6,374 nt of DNA from a virus (Monodnaviria; Loebvirae; Hofneiviricota; Faserviricetes; Tubulavirales; Inoviridae): positions 1 to 6,374 of the IMG/VR virus record IMGVR_UViG_2609459825_000013, one strand, 5' to 3'. Both the position numbers and the translations under genes were made by a program. The notes under the pieces are model-generated. The model saw only the letters and a list, made by a program, of their open reading frames with translations. It was not told the origin of the DNA and ran no database searches. Positions 5,184-6,374 of this stretch are shown here, in pieces; the stretch's first letter is position 1; the number at the start of each line of letters is the position of its first letter.

Positions 5184-6374
5184 TTGATTCACTTTATTAT
5201 TCCGCTTCTGTTTTTGTTCTTTTCCTCGTTTTCTTTCGCTGAAGAGAAAGAAAATCCGGATGCACTTGTTCAGTGTGCAGGCCATTTATCCTGCAGGACA
5301 GATTATTCGGACGCGGGGACGTCGATTAAATTAGCCAGGGCGGCCGGTCATCTTTTCTGTGGTTCGGGCAATTATGACGCATGTTCCGGAATAATTCATT
5401 ATTGTGGTGTGCCACTTTCAACGCCTGTTAATGCACCTTCGACTGTCGGGTCTTTTGTCCGTGCCCGGTGGTCAGCATATAAAGTCTGGGATTCAGACAA
5501 GCAAAAGTGGACAGCCTGCACCCTTGCTTTTCAGGGTGGTGAGGGGGATTTGACACCTGAATATAATAAGCCGCCAACTGACGAGATTTGTCTTTCTCGT
5601 CCGGTTCTTGATGGTATGACTTTTTCTGATGTTTATAAAGGTGATGACGGGACCCGTTATGTTAATGTGCAGGGGTGTATTTATGAGGCAACCGGCAATC
5701 CTCTTATTTGTAATCCCGATGATGATACAGTTTGTACTGCCGACTGGAAACCAGTTGCTGTAGATCCTGCATTCTCCGATGGTAAGGAGGATGGCGGTAG
5801 CTCAGGTGGTGGCAGTTCCGGTGGTGGTAACCCAGGCGGCGGCAGTTCCGGTGGTGGTTCAGGTTCTGGCTCCGGTGGTTCATCCGGTAGCGGTGGCTCC
5901 GGCTCGGGTTCCGGCGGCTCATCCGGCAGTGGTGGTTCAGGTTCTGGCTCCGGTGGTTCATCCGGTAGCGGTGGCTCCGGCTCGGGTTCCGGCGGCTCAT
6001 CCGGCAGTGGTGGTTCAGGTTCTGGCTCCGGTGGTTCATCCGGTAGCGGTGGCTCCGGCTCGGGTTCCGGCGGCTCATCCGGCAGTGGTGGTTCAGGTTC
6101 TGGCTCCGGTGGTTCATCCGGTAGCGGTGGCTCCGGCTCGGGTTCCGGCGGCTCATCCGGCAGTGGTGGTTCAGGTTCTGGCTCCGGTGGTTCATCCGGT
6201 AGCGGTGGCTCCGGCTCGGGTTCCGGCGGCTCATCCGGCAGTGGTGGTTCAGGTTCTGGCTCCGGTGGTTCATCCGGTAGCGGTGGCTCCGGCTCGGGCT
6301 CCGGCGGTTCATCCGGTAGCGGTGGCTCCGGCTCGGGCTCCGGCGGTTCATCCGGTAGCGGTAGTTCAGGTTCA
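5184..6374 (+). CDS. pIII-like minor coat / adsorption protein, 3'-truncated by window edge
   Basis: Not in the ORF track because no stop falls inside the window. Probable TTG start at 5184, 8 nt after AGGAG (5171-5175), in frame after a TAG at 5124-5126. Signal peptide IHFIIPLLFLFFSSFSFA, then a Cys-rich domain (10 Cys) whose end GCIYEATGNPLICNPDDDTVCTADWKPV aligns with f1 pIII N1 GCLWNATGVVVCTGDETQCYGTWVPI, then a long Gly/Ser linker to the window end. Confidence 0.85.
   Translation, partial: MIHFIIPLLFLFFSSFSFAEEKENPDALVQCAGHLSCRTDYSDAGTSIKLARAAGHLFCGSGNYDACSGIIHYCGVPLSTPVNAPSTVGSFVRARWSAYKVWDSDKQKWTACTLAFQGGEGDLTPEYNKPPTDEICLSRPVLDGMTFSDVYKGDDGTRYVNVQGCIYEATGNPLICNPDDDTVCTADWKPVAVDPAFSDGKEDGGSSGGGSSGGGNPGGGSSGGGSGSGSGGSSGSGGSGSGSGGSSGSGGSGSGSGGSSGSGGSGSGSGGSSGSGGSGSGSGGSSGSGGSGSGSGGSSGSGGSGSGSGGSSGSGGSGSGSGGSSGSGGSGSGSGGSSGSGGSGSGSGGSSGSGGSGSGSGGSSGSGGSGSGSGGSSGSGGSGSGSGGSSGSGSSGS
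5803..6374 (+). repeat. In-frame tandem repeat array inside the pIII gene encoding a (GSSGSGGSGSGSG)n Gly/Ser linker
   Basis: A 78-bp unit (two 13-codon half-units differing by synonymous changes) is repeated five times with 100% identity from 5881 to 6270, preceded by degenerate Gly-rich sequence from about 5803 and followed by 39-bp variant units from 6271 to the window end. Confidence 0.9.

Follow-up and report, generated by a model that had tools for sequence, protein, structure and literature searches.

An orphan N-terminal domain ahead of a TolA-binding-type domain in the pIII-type adsorption protein of an Escherichia coli filamentous prophage

The N-terminal domains of pIII determine which cells a filamentous phage enters. 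A pIII-type gene at the end of an inovirus sequence raises the question of which domains its tip protein carries, in which order, and what they might bind. We analyzed the IMG/VR record IMGVR_UViG_2609459825_000013 (Inoviridae), of which positions 1 to 6,374, called the window throughout, contain most of an inovirus-type filamentous prophage. Direct translation yields a single open frame from a TTG at 5184 to position 6374, which makes up the 5' portion of a gene for a pIII-type adsorption protein (Table 1). The gene is missing from the program-made list of open reading frames (ORFs) because its frame runs past the window end; the RefSeq start in homologous prophages agrees with the TTG. Its identity is supported by the gene III position, after a pVIII-like gene with a terminator and before the pVI-like, Zot/pI and secretin/pIV genes that lie downstream of pIII in complete prophage copies. 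There, the full-length homolog has 451 amino acids (aa) and consists of an N-terminal domain (NTD) and an N1-type domain, followed directly by a Gly/Ser linker and a C domain of ~150 aa with a hydrophobic anchor at its end. For the C domain, tblastn against a phage collection (50,697 records) returned zero matches. We consider it probable that this tip protein combines a receptor-binding NTD with an N1-type domain using TolA as co-receptor, in the order known from phage IKe and without N2, and that the NTD is a swapped module.

The second domain is the part that known families recognize. PF05357 (g3p N1 / Phage_Coat_A) matched residues 126-171 of the precursor with 37.8 bits (Pfam gathering score 20.8; E=1.6e-9), phmmer aligned the protein to the PDB chains 4eo1, 2g3p, 2x9a and 1fgp with E-values from 3.9e-13 to 4e-7, and residues 132-195 were found to correspond to the N1 fold. 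In tblastn searches against phages, the matched part comprised query residues 122-195 only. Cysteines 136, 165, 176 and 184 (precursor numbering) line up with those of fd and IKe; their disulfides are predicted here, while those of fd N1 are C7-C36 and C46-C53 (PMC10175506). By its sequence, the domain belongs to the family in which binding to E. coli TolA is known for the members from fd, If1 and IKe. Binding to TolA is reported for the adhesion proteins of If1, IKe and CTX (PMC10424213), and in Ff phages N1 engages TolA once the pilus is bound (PMC10175506).

The position of this domain differs from that in Ff phages. N1 starts at precursor residue 132, behind a mature segment of 112 residues containing six cysteines, and not at the mature N-terminus as in Ff. 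This confirms the original prediction of a Cys-containing segment ahead of an N1-like motif. The solved N1 chains of fd and If1 align from mature residue 3, placing N1 N-terminally in those phages. In Ff (fd/M13/f1) and If1, N1 is followed by the pilus-binding N2, whereas here it comes second and we detected no Ff-type N2 in the protein: the matches to 2g3p, 1g3p and 8b3o span only their residues 3-80. A canonical Ff-like N1-N2 arrangement binding the F pilus, named beforehand as the outcome that would overturn the prediction, is excluded by the position of N1 and the absence of N2; we found no point in its favor and give it practically no chance. It is a reasonable inference that the phage uses a receptor other than the F pilus.

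A closer parallel is found in IKe. Its pIII maps to the structures 4eo0 (precursor residues 20-128) and 4eo1 (130-199); the former we take to be the N-pilus-binding domain, while the PDB entry of the latter is titled 'TolA binding domain from the filamentous phage IKe'. In IKe, as here, the TolA-binding-type domain is the second one, the domain boundaries agree within 5 residues, and both proteins join the two domains by a comparable short Pro/Glu-rich linker and not by a Gly linker. In the IKe relatives I2-2 and PEar (PEar1, Erwinia), grouped with IKe under Lineavirus, tblastn placed the N1 match at the same position, and PHROG families show both placements, with N1 at profile positions ~132-256 in phrog_4150 and phrog_22527 versus ~19-111 in phrog_8482 and phrog_17820. 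No CTXphi pIII structure was among the PDB sequence matches at E<=10. The proposed different domain order hence holds relative to Ff, with N1 second and N2 missing, and falls away as a novelty, as the same order is known in IKe, PEar and I2-2.

The likeness to IKe raises the possibility that the NTD and the N-terminal domain of IKe/I2-2 are homologs that have diverged, and that the phage uses pili of the IncN/IncI2 type, the tips of which serve IKe (PMC7911639). The NTD equals 4eo0 in position and size. It differs from the IKe domain in sequence and predicted fold, however, and BLASTP left the two unaligned even at E<=100, so that homology to 4eo0 was not found; this explanation is close to refuted already and we regard it as very improbable. 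What sets the protein apart is an NTD that, by sequence and predicted fold, is unrelated to both the IKe N-terminal domain and Ff N2, and the claim that the N-terminal region has no obvious Ff counterpart was borne out.

Searches for relatives of the NTD outside this group of prophages returned little. Neither clade of the NTD (described below) matched Pfam at E<=10, the NTD had no match in PHROGs, and none of the PDB sequence matches at E<=10 lay over it. The best Foldseek hit in BFVD reached E 0.37 with template modeling scores (TM) <=0.29. An exhaustive profile search of 1.84 billion (1.84e9) representative proteins gave 8 matches, of which 5 are real; all five are pIII-like and come from E. 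coli, except one on a contig labelled as an Aerococcus metagenome-assembled genome (MAG). No relative was found in the GTDB representative genomes of 185,579 species, and in IMG/VR the NTD occurs in 11 contigs only (74-100% identical). The Aerococcus sp. MAG entry (P0014, MDO4671270.1) is a clade-A-like NTD fragment of 144 aa, 52% identical, on a 3.9-kb contig. Because its partner domain is of the Gram-negative TolA type, this contig is probably mis-binned enterobacterial prophage DNA. The remaining 3 matches were rejected as multi-repeat artefacts: a link to Calx-beta via P0015 (3,313 aa; E=2e-21) stems from 16 identical repeat units of 6.0 bits each with no conserved cysteine aligned, and the weak multi-repeat matches to P0018 (CUB/FG-GAP) and P0019 (InlB B-repeat) were taken as chance.

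The NTD falls into two clades with 22-31% identity between them. Clade A, to which this window belongs, has 112 residues and 6 cysteines; clade B has ~96 residues and 4 cysteines. The NTD profile retrieves clade-B proteins with E=1.4e-33 to 8e-10, and the core pattern ARxxG(H)xxC...CSG(I/D)x(H/F)YC...W.(A/S)(Y/F)K...C was found. Invariant in both clades are C40, C48, S49, G50, Y54, C55, V73, W77, C93 and G99 (mature numbering). AlphaFold2 (AF2) models gave the NTD core a predicted local distance difference test score (pLDDT) of 78-92. There is a weak hint of an N1-like fold. On one alternative view, the NTD arose long ago as a duplicate of the N1-type fold and has since diverged strongly, resulting in a tandem N1'-N1. 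Lubkowski et al. (1998) reportedly found that N1 and N2 of Ff share a similar core without sequence similarity; alignment of the NTD profile with the N1 profile using hhalign yielded a probability of 0.1%. Such a duplication, which would be compatible with a receptor-binding role, is possible and, in our estimate, considerably less probable than not.

Comparison of related prophages shows that the NTD evolves as a module of its own, exchanged among prophages that are otherwise near-identical. At the NTD/N1 junction, some ten codons inside the second domain, the blastn match breaks off in 9 complete genomes (query nucleotide 422, window position 5605), and in prophages that share ~92% identity with the remainder of the window the alignment ends at 5161, immediately 5' of pIII. 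Among clade-A alleles the NTD shows a synonymous divergence (dS) of 0.28-0.58 and a nonsynonymous divergence (dN) of 0.16-0.24, compared with dS 0.02 and dN 0.03 for the adjoining N1 and dS 0.03-0.10 and dN <=0.02 for the upstream 141-aa ORF. We counted 18 distinct clade-A alleles, varying mainly at mature residues 13-17, 38-45, 57-64 and 85-92. The clade-A NTD is found joined to two second domains, either the N1 of this window or a different one (VTEENCLSRPVIKDFSYSLGDVVW...), and NTDs of clade B, at 28-31% identity in this comparison, precede an N1 resembling that of the window. Aligned with N1 in MAFFT, the alternative second domain keeps the cysteine pattern at 38% identity; it had no match in Pfam at E<=10. 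It comprises ~70 aa (VTEENCLSRPVIKDFSYSLGDVVWVDTGNGQESQSLEINGCRYLIDFNECDDDGNC...) and is followed by the Cys/Asp-rich stretch GSGCDDDNCDN (loci L007 1201-2586 and L008 1201-2610; proteins P0006, P0008 and P0009; breakpoint at window position ~5605). As a separate observation, the pVIII-like major coat gene (4881-5123) is also unusually divergent among similar prophages, with two allele groups (dS <=0.33, dN <=0.125). This is far above the neighboring 141-aa ORF and indicates that a second surface-exposed virion protein varies too.

The most likely role of the NTD, by analogy with IKe, is that of a primary-receptor-binding module. Located at the distal tip of the virion, it would bind a primary cell-surface receptor and set host specificity; the N1-type domain would then engage domain III of TolA as co-receptor, and the C domain would complete entry, with the two N-terminal domains acting independently as in IKe. 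No finding ties this receptor to F or N pili. Several points weigh against this interpretation. The receptor role is drawn from position, the IKe analogy and the pattern of variability, and the AF2 models derive from shallow alignments (11-12 sequences) with a mean pLDDT of 76-78. Within the NTD, dN/dS is 0.3-0.9 and never >1, so that positive selection is not demonstrated, and the excess of variability in predicted loops over strands is not significant (p=0.10-0.18). The synonymous divergence of the NTD is itself raised roughly ten-fold. Since its excess divergence includes synonymous sites, recombination among long-standing alleles is a better account of it than an arms race still under way.

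Alternatively, the NTD may not bind a receptor at all and may serve as a shield or lock on the TolA-binding face of N1 that is released by a trigger, or as a variable surface module in superinfection exclusion or antigenic variation. A precedent exists in fd, where a neighboring domain covers the TolA site of N1 (PMC10175506), and the best two-domain model (predicted template modeling score, pTM, 0.74) would allow a fixed packing of the domains. The other four two-domain models are poor, however (pLDDT 53-63), and the interdomain linker is of low confidence. One and the same NTD occurs with two markedly different second domains, which speaks against an interface shaped by co-evolution, and no other domain of the protein is a candidate for recognizing the primary receptor. 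We consider a non-receptor role improbable and retain the NTD as the putative receptor-binding domain.

How does the rest of the prophage compare with known systems? Its replication protein belongs to the GPA/RstA type, with ~30% identity to those of fs2, VFJ and CTXphi. With the temperate CTXphi / fs2 / VFJ group and the dif-integrating YpfPhi / CUS-1 it further has in common a Zot-like pI gene and the occurrence as a chromosomal prophage in tandem copies; its own size is ~8.3-8.7 kb. IKe, in contrast, encodes pII where a GPA/RstA-type Rep is found here, this element is a chromosomal prophage, and the two backbones are unrelated and show no DNA match. The IKe record has an annotated stem-loop between genes VIII and III at the matching position, so the arrangement gene VIII - terminator - gene III is common to both. 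Read from TTG 1990, the longest ORF for Rep spans 700 aa and overlaps an 81-aa ORF (1845-2090); RefSeq gives the Rep homolog 666 aa, equivalent to a start at 2092. Divergent to the Rep gene, the 71-aa ORF occupies the slot of the rstR-type repressor in CTXphi and YpfPhi, and phrog_2503 has no assigned function. The 141-aa ORF, with a match to a G5P-like Pfam family that stays below threshold (E=0.075), probably encodes the single-stranded DNA-binding protein. Two small ORFs lie between it and the pVIII-like gene.

Table 1 Features of the pIII-type gene, its surroundings and tandem prophage loci. Positions refer to the window except for the last row.
Feature	Position	Strand	Remarks
Secretin, C-terminal part (pIV-like)	65-1123		Pfam Secretin E=6.5e-25
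71-aa ORF	1495-1710	minus	phrog_2503 E=1.5e-27; in AT-rich stretch ~1200-2000 (GC 0.37-0.41)
GPA-type replication endonuclease (Rep)	2092-4092		PF05840 E=1.1e-48
141-aa ORF, gene V position	4123-4548		phrog_30648 (function unassigned), end to end, E=1.6e-95
pVIII-like gene	4863/4881-5123		followed by a terminator and pIII
Intrinsic terminator between pVIII-like gene and pIII	5139-5162	+	strong; 7-bp GC-rich stem (5139-5156) plus T-run; consensus scan
Shine-Dalgarno AGGAG	5171-5175	+	8 nt 5' of TTG start; read from sequence
Signal peptide, residues 1-19 (...SFSFA/EEK)	5184-5240	+	TTG start; predicted cleavage site; conserved in homologs
Orphan NTD, residues 20-117, clade A	5241-5534	+	predicted all-beta and disulfide-containing; 6 Cys
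Interdomain linker, residues 118-131 (GGEGDLTPEYNKPP)	5535-5576	+	pLDDT 51-63
N1-like (TolA-binding-type) domain, residues 132-195	5577-5768	+	4 conserved Cys
Short acidic spacer, residues 196-204 (AFSDGKEDG)	5769-5795	+	translation
Gly/Ser linker	5796-6374	+	from 30-nt and 78-nt tandem DNA repeats; open at window end
Tandem prophage loci	L001 242-16932; L004 5002-17925

The Gly/Ser linker affects how these genes appear in databases. Tandem Repeats Finder reports a period of 78 with 6.6 copies and 97% matches. Draft assemblies break at this repeat, which accounts for the 'partial' label on most database homologs and for the end of the window at this point. The copy number of the 78-nt repeat varies among strains, and the full-length pIII proteins analyzed here range from 385 aa (L005) up to 536 aa (P0058). 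The repeat also produces a long spurious antisense ORF (5704-6351, minus strand, 215 aa), the equivalent of which in locus L004 (8630-9193, minus strand) is labelled hypothetical protein in RefSeq. In this locus, from strain 2015C-4136CT1, RefSeq breaks pIII (8094-9680) up into three entries, namely a fragment marked as pseudogene, a CDS on the antisense strand and a CDS for the C-terminal part, although the same interval reads through as an uninterrupted pIII of 528 aa with clade-B NTD, N1, linker and C domain. For annotation this means that the NTD belongs to no Pfam or PHROG family and that the gene is often truncated or split at the Gly/Ser repeat and labelled 'hypothetical protein'.

Megablast of the whole window against the phage collection gave no match, while chromosomes in 99 of 5,426 complete E. 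coli genomes matched it with up to 98% identity. Head-to-tail tandem copies occur in complete genomes with a period of 8,739 bp (strain 100416) or 8,254 bp (2015C-4136CT1). The prophage in L004 adjoins hipBA/tam/yneE, and hipBA flanks dif in K-12. The 28-nt E. coli dif, the type of site at which XerCD integrates inoviruses such as CTXphi, YpfPhi and CUS-1, was not found with <=3 mismatches in the window or in the 17.9-kb stretch of L004, the right-hand prophage junction lying outside that stretch.

What does this locus add? The pairing, in IKe-like order, of variable pIII receptor domains and a conserved domain for TolA binding is already established as a principle, and the locus extends this known biology without changing it. 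New is an unclassified, putative receptor-domain family in an IKe-type pIII layout that, in the sequences searched, is restricted to E. coli prophages. Specialists would expect lineage-specific N-terminal domains in pIII, making the surprise a moderate one. Temperate, chromosomally integrated inoviruses of enterobacteria generally lack an assigned primary receptor, as a review on YpfPhi states; for YpfPhi itself a surface receptor was also not found, and TolQRA was proposed as secondary receptor (PMC4266046); no Yersinia proteins turned up among the NTD homologs. In a more far-reaching and, in our view, unlikely scenario, an early duplication of the N1 fold would have given rise to the NTD as an unrecognized receptor-binding family. 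The NTD would now circulate as an interchangeable specificity cassette among the filamentous prophages of E. coli associated with diarrhoea, at least two NTD clades being combined with at least two types of second domain, and would bind a receptor other than a conjugative pilus, e.g. a chromosomal pilus, fimbria or outer-membrane component. If true, such a receptor would explain how the prophages pass from strain to strain without depending on F, N or I plasmids. Overall, the NTD represents a bounded candidate specificity module of 112 residues, with two clades, at least 18 natural alleles and natural chimeras with two second domains. As it stands beside a domain with a well-understood co-receptor, identification of its receptor is directly approachable.
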